NCBI GenBank assembly: GCA_963739305.1
Contig: CAVTZU010000017.1
Location: 46,600 to 110,599, forward strand
Origin: Candidatus Bathyarchaeota archaeon
GTDB taxonomy: Archaea > Thermoproteota > Bathyarchaeia > Bathyarchaeales > Bathycorpusculaceae
Direction: 5' to 3'
Length of the DNA stretch: 64,000 nt
Under the pieces are notes generated by a model, which saw only the letters and a list, made by a program, of their open reading frames with translations, was not told the DNA's origin and did no database searches. Positions 5,774 to 60,544 of this stretch are shown one piece after another; the first letter of the stretch is position 1; the number at the start of each line of letters is the position of its first letter. The position numbers and the translations under genes were made by a program.

Positions 5774-6254
5774 TCTAACTCACCTCCAGCTACTCTGCCA
5801 CATTGTTTCGTGCTTTCTTAGGGATATATAACTATTCAACTGCATACCATGGTTACTGAGAAAACTTTTCCGTGCGCGCTGGACTCGAAGAAAAAACGGA
5901 AGGAATAGGTGGTTGGCTGAGGGCCTGGTCAACATGGGTTTTGAGTGTTCCGGGCTCTAAAACACCCTACCCCCCGGTCTTTTTTTCTTGCAGAGTACTG
6001 CGGATGGAGATTTTGTTAGGGCGGTGGCTGATTCTTGTCGTGGTTTCCGTTTGAATTTGCATGTTGAAGTGTGACGGAACAGATAGATTCTTGTTGCATG
6101 GAGAGGCTGGGAATCTCAGATGCTGAAGATGCTGAATAACTCTGATGTAGCACATGCAAAATTGACTTCAATCGTGGAAGCGCGCGATCTTCCTTGTCAA
6201 GGTTTGGTTCAAGGGGCAAAGTTAAATTCTAAGAGCCAGAAACACATAACGCCT

Positions 6255-6593
6255 ATGGACTTGAAAACAGCTTTGGGGGCTGCCGCAATTGCCGTTCTTC
6301 TGTTCTTCGGCATAATATTCGCATGGGCTTCGGTCTATGCAATAACACGACTATACGTTGCCGCAGCGCTGTTCGTTGTTGCGTTTGTTATCGCTTTCTT
6401 CATTTCGAGAAAGCCTAAGACTATAGTGCAGCAGTTCGAAGTGTCTGGTGAAATGAAAGCTGTCACAATCAAGTGTCCCAACTGTTCAGGATCAATTGAC
6501 CCAAACAGCATCAAAATCGTCGATGGTGTTCCCTATGCGACGTGTCCGTATTGTGGGAACAGGTTCGAGGTGACCGAGGAACCCAAATGGTGA
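6255..6593 (+). CDS. Two-TM membrane protein with C-terminal zinc ribbon
   Basis: Two hydrophobic helices, then CPNC...CPYC; stop overlaps the start of the next gene; start refined to ATG 6255. Confidence 0.8.
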   Translation: MDLKTALGAAAIAVLLFFGIIFAWASVYAITRLYVAAALFVVAFVIAFFISRKPKTIVQQFEVSGEMKAVTIKCPNCSGSIDPNSIKIVDGVPYATCPYCGNRFEVTEEPKW

Positions 6594-8233
6594 AAAACCG
6601 TCTGCTCATTGCTTTTTTTGCAGTCGTCGCTGTTTCTCTGATGCTTACAAATTGCGTGTCCGCGCAGCGTGCTTATCATTTTGATCAAGAGTGGGTGAAG
6701 ATCTGGATCAACGCGGATGGAAGTATCGACCTGTTCTACAACATAAGCATAACTTTGGATTCTGGGGACAACATAAATTTCGTCACCGTGGGGCAGCCCC
6801 AGGGTGATTTCACGAATGGAACAGCCATCGACCAGTATGGAAACGTCCTGTCAACATCAGACGCGAGTTCAGGAAGCGATTACAAGGTTCAGGTTAACCT
6901 CGCCAACCCATTGATGGCTGGACAAACAGTTTGGTTCACGGTCACCACGAACGTTGCAAACATGATCTATGAAGACAATGAAACTAACGTCGGCATGTTA
7001 TTCATACCCACTTGGTGGACGCAAGCAACGGTGACTGACCTTCGTGTTTCAATCGTCCTACCTCTTGGAGTGGCTAGCAGCCAAATTGGCACTTCAGTCA
7101 ACTGGGACAACTTGCTCACCGAGCCTGACGGGCGATTGGCGGTATTCTGGGAAAGACAGAACCTTAGTCAGGGCCAGAAGTACGAGTTTGGAGTTTCTTT
7201 CCCCAAAGGATTTGTGAGCAAGTACGGGCAGAAGGCCACGCCCCTTGTTGCATTCTTCAGGGACTACGGTCCTGGGCTTCTGGGGGTTGGAGTTTTCGTC
7301 GCCTTCGTTGGAATCGTCGCGCGATTTGTTCGGAAGAAAGGTTACCAGTTGCCGAAGATCAGCATGGAAACTCTCGGAGCGCGACGCGGCTTGACAGCGG
7401 TGGAGGCTTCCTATCTCATAGGCATGAAGCCTCCGATGGTTGTGACGGAGATTCTGTACAGTCTGCTTCAGAAGAGGGCGGTCTGGGTAGAGGGAACTAA
7501 ACCGTCTATCAAACTGAGAATCATGGATCAATTCAAGAACAAGAAAGGAACCTCGGATGTTCCTCTTCGGTACTACGAGATCGATTTCCTCGGTGCTCTT
7601 AAAGAAAATGGTGCGCTTGATGAGGAGAAGCTTGCCAAGACAGTAATGTACCTAAGAGATTCCGTGGAGGAAAAGATGCGTGGTTATGAGAGGGCCGGTA
7701 CGATCGAATATTATAAGCAGATCGCCGGGAAGGCTTGGACGCAGGTTGAACAGGCAGGGACCCCTGAATTGGCTTCGAACGCCTACGACGAACAACTGCT
7801 GTGGCTGTTTCTGGACCCCAACTATAAGGCAAGGACCGACACGGCTTTTCGGGACAGAGTTTTTCAGCCCAGCCCCCTCTGGTTCTGGTACTGGTACGGC
7901 TACCAAAACTACTTCTCGCACCCGACTTATCAGCCGAACATAGGAACGCCAAGTCAATCCGGCAAGCCACCCACGATTCCAGGAGCAGATTTTGCGAACA
8001 ACGTTGCCTCCGCAGTTGAGAACACGTCGAACTCAATAGTGGTCAATCTTGAGAAATTCGCTAATTCAATATTGCCGTTTTCACCTGGCAAAGCTTCACA
8101 GTCACCAGCTCATAGTAACGCAGACTGCGTGTGTGCATGTGCTGCCTGCGCCTGTGCCTGTGCATGCGTCTCTTGTGCGTGTGCCTGCGCAGGCGGCGGA
8201 GTCGGGATTAAAGGGGATGGTTTGAAAAGATGA
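6587..8233 (+). CDS. Single-pass membrane protein (DUF2207-like ectodomain) with C-terminal CVCACAACACACACVSCACACAGGG tail
   Basis: Signal peptide, beta-rich domain (IWINADGSIDL..Y), one TM segment, cytoplasmic domain, 10 Cys in 21 residues at 8126-8188. Confidence 0.85.
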   Translation: MVKNRLLIAFFAVVAVSLMLTNCVSAQRAYHFDQEWVKIWINADGSIDLFYNISITLDSGDNINFVTVGQPQGDFTNGTAIDQYGNVLSTSDASSGSDYKVQVNLANPLMAGQTVWFTVTTNVANMIYEDNETNVGMLFIPTWWTQATVTDLRVSIVLPLGVASSQIGTSVNWDNLLTEPDGRLAVFWERQNLSQGQKYEFGVSFPKGFVSKYGQKATPLVAFFRDYGPGLLGVGVFVAFVGIVARFVRKKGYQLPKISMETLGARRGLTAVEASYLIGMKPPMVVTEILYSLLQKRAVWVEGTKPSIKLRIMDQFKNKKGTSDVPLRYYEIDFLGALKENGALDEEKLAKTVMYLRDSVEEKMRGYERAGTIEYYKQIAGKAWTQVEQAGTPELASNAYDEQLLWLFLDPNYKARTDTAFRDRVFQPSPLWFWYWYGYQNYFSHPTYQPNIGTPSQSGKPPTIPGADFANNVASAVENTSNSIVVNLEKFANSILPFSPGKASQSPAHSNADCVCACAACACACACVSCACACAGGGVGIKGDGLKR

Positions 8234-58911: not shown

Positions 58912-59254
58912 TTTGACACTTCCTCTGCTTTGTGTGTGGATAAGAAGGGATGACTAATAAGCGTTTTTTTGAGATGTGTCGGTTTCTATGTGTTGTTCAG
59001 TCCCTGTTTTATGGGAGGATTTGGTGGGGCTGCCCGTCCCCGAACCCAAAAGGGTTCAGAACCTCTTTCTTTAGAACCTTGCACAGTTTGGTTTTTTCCA
59101 AGTCTATCGCTTGATGTTGCGAGTGCGAGTAGGCGCGCGCGCTAAAGTGCTATCGATAAACCGACTATCTAAATGAACATTGTTAATGTCCACACAACAT
59201 TACAGAAAAAGAGGGAAGAAAGTTAGGACTCTTTATCGTAGCCTACCGCGCGCC

Positions 59255-60544
59255 TCAGCCCAGTCCCGAGGGACTGGAGGTCTGATACTTGTTCCAGATC
59301 CAAACGTTGCCAGTACCTGTCATGTCCCAGTAGAGGTCGAACTGACCGCTATTCTTCACGAGGTTTCCTGCCACGAGGTTGTTGCTCGATCCATCGGTGA
59401 GCGCGATGCCCCACTGCGCACTGTTCTTGATCACATTGGTCGTCACGAGTGTGCCGTCGGCGTGGTCTACCCACACGCCCACGTAGCTCCCAGTAATGGT
59501 ATTACCAATGACCACCGTGTTCAGAGTGCTTTTCGTGTTGTAGTCATACAAGAGGACTGCGCTGGCCCCCTGGCTGACCTGAAGAATCTGGTTGTCCGTG
59601 ATGTATACCGTAGATGGCGTAGTGCCGGACACGAAGGTGTCCTGTCCAGCCACTATACCCCCGAAATCTATCACGTTCGAAATTCGGTTCCCGCAGACAA
59701 TTATCTTGCTGTTGTACGCGTCATAGAAGCCCGTCGACCCGTAGGAGTTGGTGATCGTGTTGTAGCAGACCGTGACCTTTGCGTTGACAAGCTCGCCAAA
59801 CCAGGGCCCAGATTCTTCGGAATTGAACACACTGTTGGTCACCGAAAAACTGCCGGAAATCGGAATCATTTGCGCCAGGGCGTCGGTCCACCCCTCCGGC
59901 AGCAATTGACCCCAGTAGATGATCCCGTTCCACATGTTGAACGTGCTTGGTCCCACGGCGTCCCCTGACGCTCCGAGCACCGTCACGTGGTCAATCGTGG
60001 CAGAGGCTTGCTTCTGGCCGGTAATTTCGATCGCTGCGTAGAGCGAAGTATAGGGTGTGCCCAGAAGGTCCCAGCCCATGGTCGGCGCTGTATACGGATC
60101 GGTGAGCGTCATCCCGGAGATTGCGAACGATCCGCCCACGAAGGTGAATAGGTTCGGCCAAGGATTCTGCGGCCCAGGCAGTCCCGCCCAAAACGGGATT
60201 GTATTAGTGTTGTATTCGGCCGCGGGAGACGGCAAGTTCGGAAGCGCTTGGATGGTGGTCCATTGCTGACCCATCCCGACGAAGCTGCCTTGGAACCCGT
60301 ACACGGTGATCTGCGCTGTGTAGTAGGTTCCCTTTTCCAACTGGACCGTGCATCCTGGACCGTGCGCCACGGCGGCGTCGAACGCGGCTTGGATGTTCGC
60401 GGTGTCGTCATACCCGTTCGTCGGCCAGACAGTGTAGGTTGCGCGTGCGTTTGGTGAAGGATTAGCGTTTACTTTTGGTGCAAGTAGCCCAAACATTGAC
60501 AAGCACAAAATGCCTATAATCACTAGTCCTAGCATTCTATTCAT
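59255..60544 (-). CDS. Secreted right-handed parallel beta-helix (NosD/PbH1-like) protein
   Basis: Signal peptide; DDTANIQAAFD..VQLEKGTY; repeated GN.I..N motifs. Confidence 0.85.
   Translation of the reverse strand: MNRMLGLVIIGILCLSMFGLLAPKVNANPSPNARATYTVWPTNGYDDTANIQAAFDAAVAHGPGCTVQLEKGTYYTAQITVYGFQGSFVGMGQQWTTIQALPNLPSPAAEYNTNTIPFWAGLPGPQNPWPNLFTFVGGSFAISGMTLTDPYTAPTMGWDLLGTPYTSLYAAIEITGQKQASATIDHVTVLGASGDAVGPSTFNMWNGIIYWGQLLPEGWTDALAQMIPISGSFSVTNSVFNSEESGPWFGELVNAKVTVCYNTITNSYGSTGFYDAYNSKIIVCGNRISNVIDFGGIVAGQDTFVSGTTPSTVYITDNQILQVSQGASAVLLYDYNTKSTLNTVVIGNTITGSYVGVWVDHADGTLVTTNVIKNSAQWGIALTDGSSNNLVAGNLVKNSGQFDLYWDMTGTGNVWIWNKYQTSSPSGLG

Follow-up and report, generated by a model that had tools for sequence, protein, structure and literature searches.

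Alternating GC tracts at variable junctions of a Bathyarchaeia genome: candidate scars of DNA rejoining

Short alternating GC tracts, mostly of the form GCGCGCGC, were observed to be tied genome-wide to variable junctions, to coincide exactly with block ends, to appear as filler in derived alleles only, to adjoin cut genes and to form a decay series. The explanation we favour, at somewhat better than even probability, is that they are junction scars, i.e. GC filler written where DNA was broken and rejoined. A first-pass annotation of the window (the whole stretch of DNA analysed here, 64 kb) had proposed scars of an undescribed joining route. This idea was supported by enrichment, synteny and chimera tests and by GC filler at deletion junctions of close relatives; no published description of such scars was found in a literature search.

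Tracts in the window and in the genome

The source MAG (Bathyarchaeia), of which the window is a part, has a size of 2.32 Mb and 47% GC. The window contained nine overlapping matches to GCGCGCGC at seven loci (10678, 10804, 12830, 35322, 36618, 51734 and 59133), exactly as annotated, while 100 dinucleotide-preserving shuffles of it gave a mean of 0.74 and a maximum of 3. The tracts at 12830 and 59133 were 10 bp long, and the palindrome around the former was confirmed. Twelve of 14 shorter runs in the same annotation were alternating over 6-7 nt, two of them shifted by 1 nt (25487 and 52132), but those at 48736 and 60441 were only GCGCG. A further 12 alternating runs of 6-7 nt (1870, 7318, 20534, 25093, 31835, 36157, 38861, 41157, 45685, 46775, 56009 and 56309) all lay in called genes. 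The long tracts had been placed outside genes throughout; by crude gene calls and Pfam-supported ORFs this held for five of the seven, but those at 10678 and 10804 lie within the 5' extension of an ABC-ATPase ORF. Residue 102 is the first of the Pfam domain in this ORF, whose true start is uncertain; if the in-frame ATG at 10777 is the start, the 10804 tract is intragenic. The features were as follows (strand given where assigned).

5874..5879: GCGCGC on the left border of a multi-copy intergenic repeat, here a ~300-nt copy (about 5880-6180)
6120..9573, plus strand: radical-SAM/SPASM gene cluster, ancestral here and present in at least eight related contigs
6180..6186: GCGCGCG, right edge of the same repeat copy
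10149..10155: GCGCGCG, ~290 nt beyond b706, near the start of the ~8.5-kb gap between b706 and b707
10678..10685: GCGCGCGC tract with backbone gene b706 (9570-9857) on one side and an inserted ABC-transporter segment on the other
10804..10811: GCGCGCGC tract, either within the 5' region of the ABC ATPase gene or shortly before it (start uncertain)
12830..12839: (GC)5 tract in the palindrome TAGCGCGCGCGCTA (12828-12841), separating the ABC-transporter segment from the metal-resistance cassette
12890..12895: GCGCGC, exact left end of a 95%-identical block shared with G005
12896..16634: mobile metal-resistance cassette, 91-95% identity to G005 and G009
16624..16631: CGCACGCG, a single transition from CGCGCGCG
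20231..20237: CGCGCGC at the 3' end of a GNAT gene
20905..20910: GCGCGC past an OmdA-like gene, at the joint with a CdhD gene pair (G001 orthologues elsewhere)
35322..35329: GCGCGCGC tract between an ABC/PadR block (G001 b1602-b1606) and a gene without G001 orthologue
36618..36625: GCGCGCGC tract, flanking genes with G001 orthologues ~130 kb apart; GCGCGC at 36735
48640..48735, minus strand: C-terminal remnant (32 residues) of a tyrosine recombinase beside tRNA-Asn (48520-48596)
51734..51741: GCGCGCGC tract, flanked by gene 51320-51664 (G001 orthologue elsewhere) and a small gene without orthologue
59133..59142: (GC)5 tract, both neighbour genes without G001 orthologue; CGCGCGC at 59247

The neighbours of all seven long tracts were displaced or missing in the closed congener G001, which agrees with the earlier placing of the tracts at breakpoints, and none of the seven lay inside the conserved syntenic runs 39124-46851 and 52304-57532. 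The repeat said to start at a tract was in fact bracketed by tracts on both sides (5874 and 6180); this copy was missing from relatives at the same position, and L199 and L205 had tracts at independent breakpoints in the same spacer. Genes b706 and b707, ~8.5 kb apart in the window, were adjacent in G001 and in 10 of the metagenome loci. The odd tail noted for one ORF was traced to the GCGCGC at 12890-12895, which replaces the final codons of the flavin reductase and thereby alters its C-terminus. Diverse loose ends lay at 12896 in run X7. The cassette carries the flavin reductase, a P-type ATPase, an HMA protein, ArsR and a small ORF, and, summed over contigs, its depth in four public runs was several-fold to ~60-fold above that of the adjacent bins. 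The CGCACGCG near its right side lies 2 nt ahead of the cassette end used by a joint in run X1 and is probably a decayed tract. Contigs of run X1 were without 19724-20249 and had CGCGC... at the joint. Two GCGCGC runs (35357 and 35431) come after the 35322 tract, and CGCGCG at 52132 ends a small segment without orthologue, after which the conserved backbone resumes. The truncation of an integrase at a tract was likewise found, the cut end of the recombinase remnant adjoining GCGCG at 48736-48740.

In a genome-wide word count GCGCGCGC was the top-ranking 8-mer, with 359 positions. The enrichment between genes that had been suggested as a check was present: 310 of the 359 positions (86%) were extragenic by our own crude gene calls, compared with only 13-50% for six other GC-rich 8-bp palindromes. 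The core is a G-first 8-bp palindrome with the loose form TAGCGCGCGCTA. Exact 8-nt alternating runs were G-first in 178 cases versus C-first in 24, and only five runs exceeded 10 nt. As the flanks were random past +/-2 nt, the tract is not part of a larger repeat. The first 20-nt bin after the stop codon was the largest in a histogram of distances to gene ends (63 entries), and 10 of 327 tracts overlapped a TAG stop. In intergenic DNA the perfect tract reached 5.7x expectation, single transitions 2.2x and double transitions 1.5x. Tracts also occurred in all 10 of 10 congeners, in a genome closed as a single contig and in contigs of many studies, which speaks against library chimeras, the window's own junctions having been compared with contigs only.

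Synteny breaks, block ends and deletion junctions

Spacers were compared with one genome, the closed congener G001, and an adjacency was counted as broken when the orthologues were more than 5 genes apart. Tracts were nearly absent from the spacers of conserved adjacencies (6/751 in G000 and 9/751 in G001), so that conservation in syntenic spacers of relatives, another suggested check, was hardly seen. They were present in 23/214 spacers of broken adjacencies in G000, in 92/665 with one flank lacking an orthologue and in 101/654 with both flanks lacking one; overall, the frequency was 11-25% in spacers at synteny breaks or next to accessory genes. A separate count took only divergent and convergent spacers, which cannot lie inside operons: 4/201 conserved versus 114/607 remaining spacers in G000 had a tract (Fisher p=3e-11), and 3/199 versus 148/625 in G001 (p=4e-16). 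Conserved divergent spacers had one in 1/96 and 0/94 cases. Given this near absence from spacers with conserved neighbours, the tract does not serve generally as a promoter, terminator or binding site. Block ends, defined as internal ends of blocks of at least 85% identity (n=406), had a tract within 5 nt in 69 cases versus 7.0 and 7.2 in two controls, an excess of about tenfold.

Indels between close relatives were collapsed by hand to 16 independent archaeal simple indels. In five of these, alternating-GC filler stood at the junction while the long allele was tract-free at both edges, i.e. the filler was carried by the derived junction alleles. The 107 nt of L218/L217, with the 5' part of b705, were replaced by CGCGCGCG in L221; ~255 nt of L224/G001 (G001 as outgroup) by GCGCGCGC in L233/G002; the radical-SAM/SPASM cluster (3289 nt) by GCGCGC in G001; 1622 nt of L219 by a 17-nt GC run in L267 (polarity not fixed); and 564 nt of L208 by CGCGC in L210, which forms GCGCGCGC together with its flanks. 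Seven of the 16 indels were without any tract, and two had degenerate purine-pyrimidine filler only. In L238/L252, GCGCGCGC was already present at one edge of the long allele, and in the strain polymorphism C2/C3 a 4198-bp segment lay between direct copies of TAGCGCGCGC, with one tract at the empty site. The latter fits insertion into, or recombination between, existing tracts, and for both cases pre-existing sites fit equally well or better than new filler. By eye, unaligned, the ~255-nt segment lost in L233/G002 resembled the window repeat at about 5880-6180.

Genes were also cut at tracts. An AbiEii-like gene, full length in G000, ended at (GC)5 in G001; a recombinase remnant began 3 nt past GCGCGCGCG, and the radical-SAM remnant of L257 began 3 nt past GCGCGC. 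At 852-887 kb G001 contained a tract-bracketed array of ~35 short genes and gene fragments with two tyrosine recombinases at one edge. In C13 and C17 one pair of tract positions, adjoining a recombinase remnant, enclosed differing cassettes. A 1293-nt insert of G001 had tracts at both ends, and G000 had 7 nt without a tract there. In each of the spacers after b705 and zn5640, several lineages had tracts at the same position or close by.

Alternative explanations and related systems

The tract could be the end or excision footprint of mobile DNA, with GCGCGCGC as the minimal terminal repeat for a transposase acting in trans; anything between two tracts would then move, and excision or an adjacent deletion would leave one tract. 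We consider this reading rather unlikely. The tract-ended 1293-nt insert with its tract-free empty site and the unaligned resemblance of the ~255-nt segment to the tract-bracketed repeat would suit it, as would the strict 8-nt G-first preference, which is more typical of a recognised site than of free tailing. However, the tract-flanked segments were mutually unrelated, no transposase was found in those examined, and the filler deletions also took ordinary coding DNA, such as the 3.3-kb radical-SAM cluster or the 5' part of b705, that bore no trace of an element. The single clear IS in the data had its own terminal inverted repeats and an 8-13-bp target duplication but no tract, and copies of the multi-copy intergenic repeat were inconsistently flanked by tracts. 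It is distinctly unlikely that the tract is a recombination or integration site of an integrase or integron-like system, which would bring in circular cassettes or fragments at GCGCGCGC, or duplicate it by staggered cuts, and exchange cassettes between such sites. The five clean deletions without a tract at either edge of the long allele argue against prior sites, as do arbitrary breakpoints, some within genes; tyrosine recombinases were equally frequent in tract-poor relatives, Cas1 was merely fragmentary in G000 and most congeners, and the tract is much shorter than any attC. The C2/C3 insert between direct copies, the C13/C17 swap, the recombinases at the edge of the G001 array and the recurrence after b705 and zn5640 would agree with integration. 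Integron cassette arrays and attC clusters without integrase have been reported in Archaea too (10.1101/2022.02.06.479319), and the arrays here are similar in their unrelated single accessory genes, including toxin-antitoxin pairs, with a short palindrome after each and tyrosine recombinases nearby. Unlike in integrons, the element is 8-12 bp long and lacks the structure of an attC, many of the 'cassettes' are arbitrary pieces, truncated genes among them, and tracts also stand at plain deletions without a prior site.

A selected functional sequence near accessory genes (a protein-binding, insulator or terminator site, an uptake-type signal or a HIP1-like methylation palindrome), for which the link to junctions would be only a correlation, is very unlikely. 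HIP1 is frequent within genes. In cyanobacteria HIP1 (GCGATCGC) is described as evolutionarily conserved and recognised by methyltransferases (PMC4390886, PMC5861425), and the tract is like it in being GC-rich, palindromic over 8 bp, lineage-restricted and more over-represented than any other word of its genome. The peak right after stops and a weak co-occurrence in conserved spacers of G000 and G001 (2 common, odds ratio 53, p=0.002) point the same way. Yet the tracts, unlike HIP1, are mostly intergenic and shun conserved regions, including the spacers bearing promoters and terminators; block ends fall within 0-5 nt of them, genes are truncated at them, and copies with one mismatch are plentiful, which points to unconstrained decay. 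A C5 methyltransferase was found in neither G000 nor G001. REP/BIME elements are short intergenic palindromes frequent after gene ends, and the tracts resemble them in all of this, but the tracts have no sequence conservation past 12 bp and are tied to breakpoints rather than to conserved operon ends. An origin from restriction-cut DNA, ligated once a GC overhang has been filled in, was raised by the first-pass annotation and is extremely unlikely. The arithmetic of fill-in can yield even-length G-first runs, and the flank consensus A-GCGCGCGC-T equals GCGC duplicated within AGCGCT, but AGCGCT, GCGC and CGCG were not avoided (observed/expected 0.86-1.06 in G000 and G001), no C5 methyltransferase was found in either, and the parental sequence at the five clean junctions had no such site at either edge, contrary to the proposed joining at CGCG/GCGC sites. 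The Z-DNA hotspot and mobile-element-footprint options are minority readings.

Candidate enzymes and proposed mechanism

Fillers at joined ends are familiar from the N- and P-nucleotides of V(D)J recombination, the templated insertions of alternative end joining and the short telomeric repeats inserted where vertebrate breaks were repaired. Like these, the tracts consist of bases foreign to both parental ends, exactly at deletion or capture joints; unlike them, they are one stereotyped self-complementary word, mostly GCGCGCGC, with hundreds of copies per genome in an archaeon. To our knowledge, Ku/LigD NHEJ has not been described as leaving a repeated GC octamer. Prokaryotic Ku/LigD NHEJ, including that of Methanocella paludicola, is reported to be error-prone and to have a polymerase (PMC4797286, PMC8656161). 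Similarly, G000 has a full operon of PolDom, Ku and ligase-phosphoesterase genes, which is a candidate for the filler enzyme. Its distribution in 151 genomes of the order did not track tract abundance and gives no support to the operon as sole cause: at least 50 tracts were present in 5/23 genomes with Ku versus 26/128 without (p=1), and in 12/30 with PolDom versus 19/121 without (odds ratio 3.6, p=0.005, phylogeny ignored). G136, G165 and G167 had 262, 341 and 266 copies without either Ku or PolDom, and genus g23 had the operon but few tracts; the operon is thus neither necessary nor sufficient for tracts in these genomes. A search of G000 for an RVT_1 reverse transcriptase and a PolX palm domain yielded neither. 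The archaeal replicative primase PriSL(X) of Saccharolobus is reported to perform microhomology-mediated end joining, with terminal transferase and microhomology-annealing activity and small indels at breaks (PMC12019639); the abstract of that study reports no GC-specific filler, unlike the tracts here. As PriSL(X) is universal in archaea, it could act in Ku-less genomes, but for the same reason it leaves the patchy distribution of tracts unexplained.

With the tracts as junction scars, breaks in this Bathyarchaeia lineage would be rejoined with short alternating G/C filler between the two ends, both when a piece is lost and when a fragment, foreign or displaced, is captured. Usually GCGCGCGC and often with A/T adjacent, the filler may be made by an end-joining polymerase or primase acting at the break. 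Selection would remove scars from essential DNA, so that the survivors would gather between genes, right after stops and around accessory genes and fragments. Over time scars would build up into cassette-like arrays, and two existing tracts would provide 8-10 bp of perfect microhomology for further deletions or swaps between them; the tracts would then decay through point mutation. The tracts look like the marks of an undescribed DNA-rejoining route in an uncultured archaeon.

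Abundance and placement of the alternating G/C tract

The genome assembly to which the window belongs (G000) comprises 2,317,032 bp in 36 contigs (C-numbers) and has a G+C content of 47.4%.

Window: G000, contig C17, positions 46600-110599

Archaeal-looking genes of the window are CdhD, eRF1 domain 3, PyrI, NFACT-R_2 and HerA. Tracts, that is, alternating G/C runs of at least 6 nt with the core word GCGCGCGC, were counted in the window and in the entire assembly. The excess of GCGCGCGC noted in the first-pass annotation was confirmed, as seven window loci (the long tracts) gave nine overlapping matches, whereas 100 shuffles averaged 0.74 and never exceeded 3. 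Among the 14 shorter runs listed there, 12 were genuine 6-7-nt runs, while those at 48736 and 60441 read GCGCG only; 12 further 6-7-nt runs, all within genes, were missing from that list. GCGCGCGC was the commonest 8-mer of G000 with 718 counts on both strands (359 positions), while the runner-up word reached 524; as an 8-bp palindrome over-represented throughout the genome it resembles HIP1. Alternating runs of 6, 7, 8, 9 and 10 nt occurred 398, 150, 202, 96 and 48 times, and only five were longer. Exact 8-nt runs began with G in 178 cases and with C in 24, which identifies the unit as the palindrome GCGCGCGC rather than a generic (GC)n. Among 174 exact copies the base after the tract was T in 68% and the next base A in 45%; beyond 2 nt on either side the flanks were random, and the conserved part thus spans only 8-12 bp. 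A larger repeat or MITE carrying the tract was ruled out by these background-level flanks.

Genes were called with our own simple, crude coding-potential caller, which gave 2420 genes covering 82% of G000. The claim that tracts are intergenic held genome-wide, since 310 of the 359 positions (86%) were not fully within a called gene, compared with 13-50% outside genes for six other GC-rich 8-bp palindromes. The closed genome of a congener (G001) had 393 of 464 positions in intergenic DNA. In the intergenic DNA of both genomes the perfect word was 5.7-fold over the order-3 expectation, single-transition variants 2.2-fold and double transitions 1.5-fold. Variants that are palindromic by construction do not account for this, as symmetric double-transition palindromes were only 1.15-fold enriched against 2.2-fold for single transitions. 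The enrichment series looks like perfect tracts that are created and then decay without constraint.

For a comparison of gene order, G001 (2,346,764 bp, one contig) served as the single comparator. Reciprocal best hits between the two genomes numbered 1407 (median amino-acid identity 74%), and G000 spacers were classed by the G001 positions of the flanking genes' orthologues.

Tracts in G000 spacers by synteny class relative to G001
Class of spacer; spacers with a tract; tracts per kb
Conserved adjacency; 6/751; 0.13
Orthologues 2-5 genes apart; 4/100; 0.17
Broken adjacency, more than 5 genes apart; 23/214; 0.52
One flank without orthologue; 92/665; 0.83
Both flanks without orthologue; 101/654; 0.91

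Tracts were thus near-absent from syntenic spacers, and only two conserved-spacer tracts were common to both genomes. Divergent spacers of G000 had a tract in 1/96 conserved, 9/49 broken and 48/254 accessory cases, and those of G001 in 0/94, 10/52 and 62/266; with divergent and convergent spacers taken together, Fisher's test gave p=3e-11 (G000) and p=4e-16 (G001). As the contrast persists in divergent spacers, it is not an operon effect. A general promoter, terminator motif or uptake signal would occupy conserved spacers, which the tract avoids, and these readings were ruled out. The same applies to a DNA uptake sequence, which should be dense in the core genome and shared by relatives, since tracts are near-absent from conserved spacers and from genes.

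Tracts at breakpoints, gene remnants and fresh indels

Internal ends of blocks with at least 85% identity over at least 200 bp were collected from comparisons of G000 with itself and with G001. A run of at least 6 nt was present within 5 nt of 69 of the 406 block ends, compared with 7.0 after shifting by 200-1500 nt and 7.2 for random gene boundaries. Among 201 end pairs the tract was present at the break in one partner only in 62, in both in 12 and in neither in 127. All seven long tracts of the window separate genes of differing G001 provenance, as had been claimed of breakpoints from the sequence, and the conserved window runs 39124-46851 and 52304-57532 are free of long tracts.

Window 12896-16634, perhaps to about 18000: metal-resistance cassette (flavin reductase, P-type ATPase, HMA protein, ArsR)
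Window 16609-16620: perfect 12-bp palindrome GGCACGCGTGCC, a few bases before a degenerate tract at the cassette end

The metal-resistance block, 95% identical with the congener G005, ends at GCGCGC 12890-12895 within the 3' end of the flavin-reductase gene, and beyond this run the gene tails of the two genomes differ. Cassette identity was 91-95% in two congeners, while their other matches to the queried window stretch were about 70-75% identical. Contigs from four public runs (four studies; peat/wetland) gave a summed depth of the cassette from several-fold to about 60-fold that of neighbouring bins; such assembled contigs show presence, variant joints and loose ends and cannot prove each window junction as spanning reads would, and uncovered window parts were not counted as evidence. 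Contigs broke at 12896 and continued diversely, and one joined 12896 to 16634, 2 nt past CGCACGCG. The cassette appears, from its identities and depth, to be spreading horizontally. The palindrome GGCACGCGTGCC may be a mutated (GC)n tract.

Several genes are cut at tracts. An AbiEi/AbiEii-like pair is intact and without a tract on contig C23 of G000, whereas the AbiEii-like toxin gene of G001 stops mid-gene at (GC)5, and GCGCGCG caps the upstream edge of the shared 1251-nt Abi block there. A 59-residue C-terminal remnant of a tyrosine recombinase (C17, C13) starts 3 nt past GCGCGCGCG, and a 35-residue radical-SAM remnant in the related locus L257 begins 3 nt past GCGCGC. Pfam detected no integrase remnants in the window, while tblastn with the genome's own recombinases found two small ones. 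One of these bears out the suggestion that an integrase remnant is truncated at a tract: 32 residues long and beside tRNA-Asn, it abuts GCGCG at 48736, a 5-mer. The other adjoins a recurrent segment.

Window 18073-18135 (-): second tyrosine-recombinase C-terminal remnant, 21 residues
Window 18136-18239: segment of about 100 nt, recurring by cassette junctions on C12, C13, C17 and C20

The region 852-887 kb of G001 is an array in which tracts bracket each of some 35 short genes or pieces of genes. It includes the C-terminal half of Cas1, a C-terminal piece of eEF1A and a piece of AbiEii, as well as toxin-antitoxin pairs, acetyltransferases, TBP and Alba. The counterparts in G000 are scattered and 85-93% identical, against the genome median of 74%.

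A near-identical strain of the window locus was not found in the metagenome collection; the best match had 88% amino-acid identity, and the window's own junctions are not comparable at strain level. Recent changes were sought among 80 metagenome loci around the window gene 4410-5291 (L-numbers), further loci of the genus and G001, compared all against all; the relatives giving the best evidence had flanks 88-99% identical. Three simple indel rows from two bacterial loci (L033, L034) were dropped, and redundant rows were collapsed by hand to 16 independent archaeal simple indels, with polarity assigned by parsimony.

Five of the 16 had an alternating-GC filler where the long allele had no tract at either edge. 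In aligned sequences, 107 nt of L218/L217, including the start of b705 (a gene named after its G001 counterpart), are replaced by CGCGCGCG in L221, and about 255 nt of L224 and the outgroup G001 by GCGCGCGC in L233 and the congener G002. A 3289-nt radical-SAM cluster present in L056, L224, L233, the window and others is replaced by GCGCGC in G001, with both breakpoints within genes. A stretch of 564 nt in L208 (b705 and a small zinc-ribbon gene) is replaced by CGCGC in L210, which forms GCGCGCGC with its flanks. Finally, in an unpolarised pair, a 17-nt GC run of L267 stands opposite 1622 nt of L219. The remaining indels comprised one (L238/L252) whose long allele already carries GCGCGCGC at one edge, two with degenerate purine-pyrimidine fillers (TGTGCGCACGCGT and GCATGC), seven without any tract, and one true insertion sequence (IS) with terminal inverted repeats, an 8-13-bp target duplication and no tract.

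L220 and L224: classical IS, insert of 3974-3979 bp, terminal inverted repeats starting GGTTCTGTTGACTC, target duplication TCATCGGT...; absent from L233, L226, G001 and the congener G010

The spacer after the zinc-ribbon gene is independently broken at three different places in L199, L205 and the window, with a tract at each, and had no tract in 11 of the 13 other loci examined.

Window 5633-9573: small zinc-ribbon gene, two genes of unknown family, then a radical-SAM/SPASM enzyme
Window about 5880-6180: non-coding repeat of about 270-300 nt, with about 20 partial copies in G000

The former set looks like a peptide-maturation cluster; its gene order is kept in at least eight related contigs, and it is deleted in G001. 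By eye, the segment of about 255 nt lost in L233 and G002 appears to resemble the repeat family at about 5880-6180.

Existing sites, known systems and candidate enzymes

Contig ends of G000 (e.g., C7/C31, C23/C35, C13/C17 and C2/C3) overlap other contigs with 95-99% identity over 2-10 kb. On this evidence the MAG is taken to be a mix of closely related strains, which fits its stated contamination of 7.8%, and the co-assembled strain variants were used as internal comparisons. They keep alive a site-based mechanism, according to which tracts are pre-existing sites for recombination between them or insertion into one. The variants C2/C3 differ by 4198 bp that encode two surface proteins but no transposase; direct TAGCGCGCGC stands on both sides of this segment, and a single tract occupies the empty site. 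C13 and C17 carry different cassettes between the same two tract positions. Both cases are compatible with either form of this mechanism. However, in the five deletions the ancestral allele had no tract at either edge, and some breakpoints lie within genes. C2/C3 and C13/C17 are read as secondary events using the 8-10-bp microhomology of older scars. Transposon ends or footprints are an unlikely reading, since tract-flanked segments are mutually unrelated and those examined had no transposase; moreover, the only true IS encountered brings its own terminal repeats and target duplication and carries no tract. The option raised in the first-pass annotation, ligation of restriction-cut DNA after fill-in, was not supported. 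Observed/expected ratios in G000 and G001 were 0.86-0.89 for AGCGCT, 1.01-1.05 for GCGC and 1.06 for CGCG, so that these targets are not avoided, and a search for the C5 methyltransferase family (PF00145) gave no hits in either genome; 3 of 31 relatives had hits.

Further indels between strains involve a second repeat, GGGGTAAAGTTTTATCC, in the form of 27-38-bp direct repeats. The most over-represented 10-mer of G000 was TAAAGTTTTA (41 against 19 expected). All four public runs showed a sharp rise in depth at the GGGGTAAAGTTTTATCC repeat and many contigs with diverse adjoining sequence; this repeat may act as a promoter-like element or represent a further hot spot of recombination.

Window 10626-10657: GGGGTAAAGTTTTATCC followed by an A/C-rich run, also at the C8/C30 and C2/C3 junctions

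Among known processes, filler DNA at end-joining junctions comes closest; in architecture it is the integron cassette array, also reported in Archaea (10.1101/2022.02.06.479319), and as a sequence phenomenon HIP1 (PMC4390886 and PMC5861425). Each of the three has defining features that the tracts lack. HIP1 is abundant in genes and conserved at orthologous positions, whereas 86% of the tracts are outside genes and only 6/751 conserved spacers have one. An integron attC site is an imperfect inverted repeat of tens of nt with conserved core boxes, in contrast to 8-12 bp with random flanks, and integron cassettes use only pre-existing sites, while tract junctions include the five deletions without an ancestral tract and intragenic breakpoints. 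The G001 array has two PF00589 genes at one edge; by this family-level profile, PF00589 is equally common in tract-poor relatives. REP/BIME elements are conserved imperfect palindromes of about 20-40 nt, unlike the tract with its random flanks in 174 copies. Scars of Ku/LigD end joining are expected only where the pathway is present, whereas tracts also occur in genomes without Ku and PolDom (the LigD-type primase-polymerase). A literature search for the GCGCGCGC palindrome in archaea found nothing in print.

The tract is patchily distributed. All ten congeners examined had 29-464 copies each, eight other genera of the family 0-14, and an even order-wide sample of 151 genomes 0-785. Most relatives of the aminotransferase gene (85-94%) lacked both a tract within 21 kb and usable synteny; the gene itself looks horizontally spread.

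The Ku, polymerase, ligase and phosphoesterase genes required for end joining are all present in G000, which has one end-joining operon between the alanyl-tRNA and leucyl-tRNA synthetase genes, in the same order as in the further relative G016.

G000 contig C32, locus L281, 7048-10872: PolDom, Ku, ligase fused to 3'-phosphoesterase, DUF72

Besides G000, 7 of 10 congeners had a Ku hit, as did 23 of the 151 genomes of the order; the three congeners without it are 65-89% complete, and one carries the polymerase gene. At least 50 tracts were present in 5/23 genomes with Ku and 26/128 without (p=1), and with no association seen Ku was rejected as the cause. For PolDom the figures were 12/30 and 19/121 (odds ratio 3.6, p=0.005), a weak association uncorrected for phylogeny and base composition. 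The operon does not track the tracts, as there are tract-rich genomes with neither gene and a tract-poor genus with the operon. PolX palm, RVT_1 and Prim-Pol (PF09250) gave no hits in G000. The copy number of tyrosine recombinases did not differ between tract-rich and tract-poor relatives. Cas1 or a casposase as integrase was also rejected, because G000 has only two short Cas1 fragments and tract-poor genera have full-length Cas1.

C18:9381-9596: Cas1 fragment, G000
C18:15069-15263: Cas1 fragment, G000

Most congeners carry Cas1 as short fragments or with internal stops, and it is full-length in several neighbouring genera. The fragmentary state suggests loss of CRISPR adaptation in the genus. 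A replicative primase is described as mediating microhomology end joining in Saccharolobus (PMC12019639). By analogy, the universal replicative primase is a possible writer of the filler, which would leave the patchy distribution of tracts unexplained.

Proposed reading and significance

The process is best read as a form of end joining with filler, and there is a substantial chance that the machinery behind the tracts is of a new kind. A putative dedicated activity in some Bathyarchaeia would add a fixed, self-complementary sequence, (TA)GCGC or GCGCGCGC, to free DNA ends as a tag. Since such a tag would render any two ends cohesive, breaks would be sealed and arbitrary foreign or displaced fragments would be captured between tags. 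We put forward tentatively, as a rather unlikely proposal, that this tag writing is a natural 'adaptor ligation' that builds cassette arrays and differs from integrons, transposons, CRISPR adaptation and the known forms of end joining.

Among the uncultured archaea of sediments and peat, Bathyarchaeia are one of the most abundant groups. How archaea that lack classical end joining mend double-strand breaks and acquire foreign genes is, to our knowledge, an open question. The tracts provide a genome-readable signature of hundreds of past joining events per genome. As a tool, it locates where acquired or rearranged DNA begins and ends, reveals gene remnants and permits estimates of gain and loss rates in organisms that resist cultivation. 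If an enzyme writes the filler, it would represent a new DNA-end activity testable in vitro, and it should be findable by comparative genomics because the tract count varies so widely among the 151 genomes. If the tag-writing reading is true, the flexible genome of this lineage of Bathyarchaeia would be driven by natural adaptor ligation.
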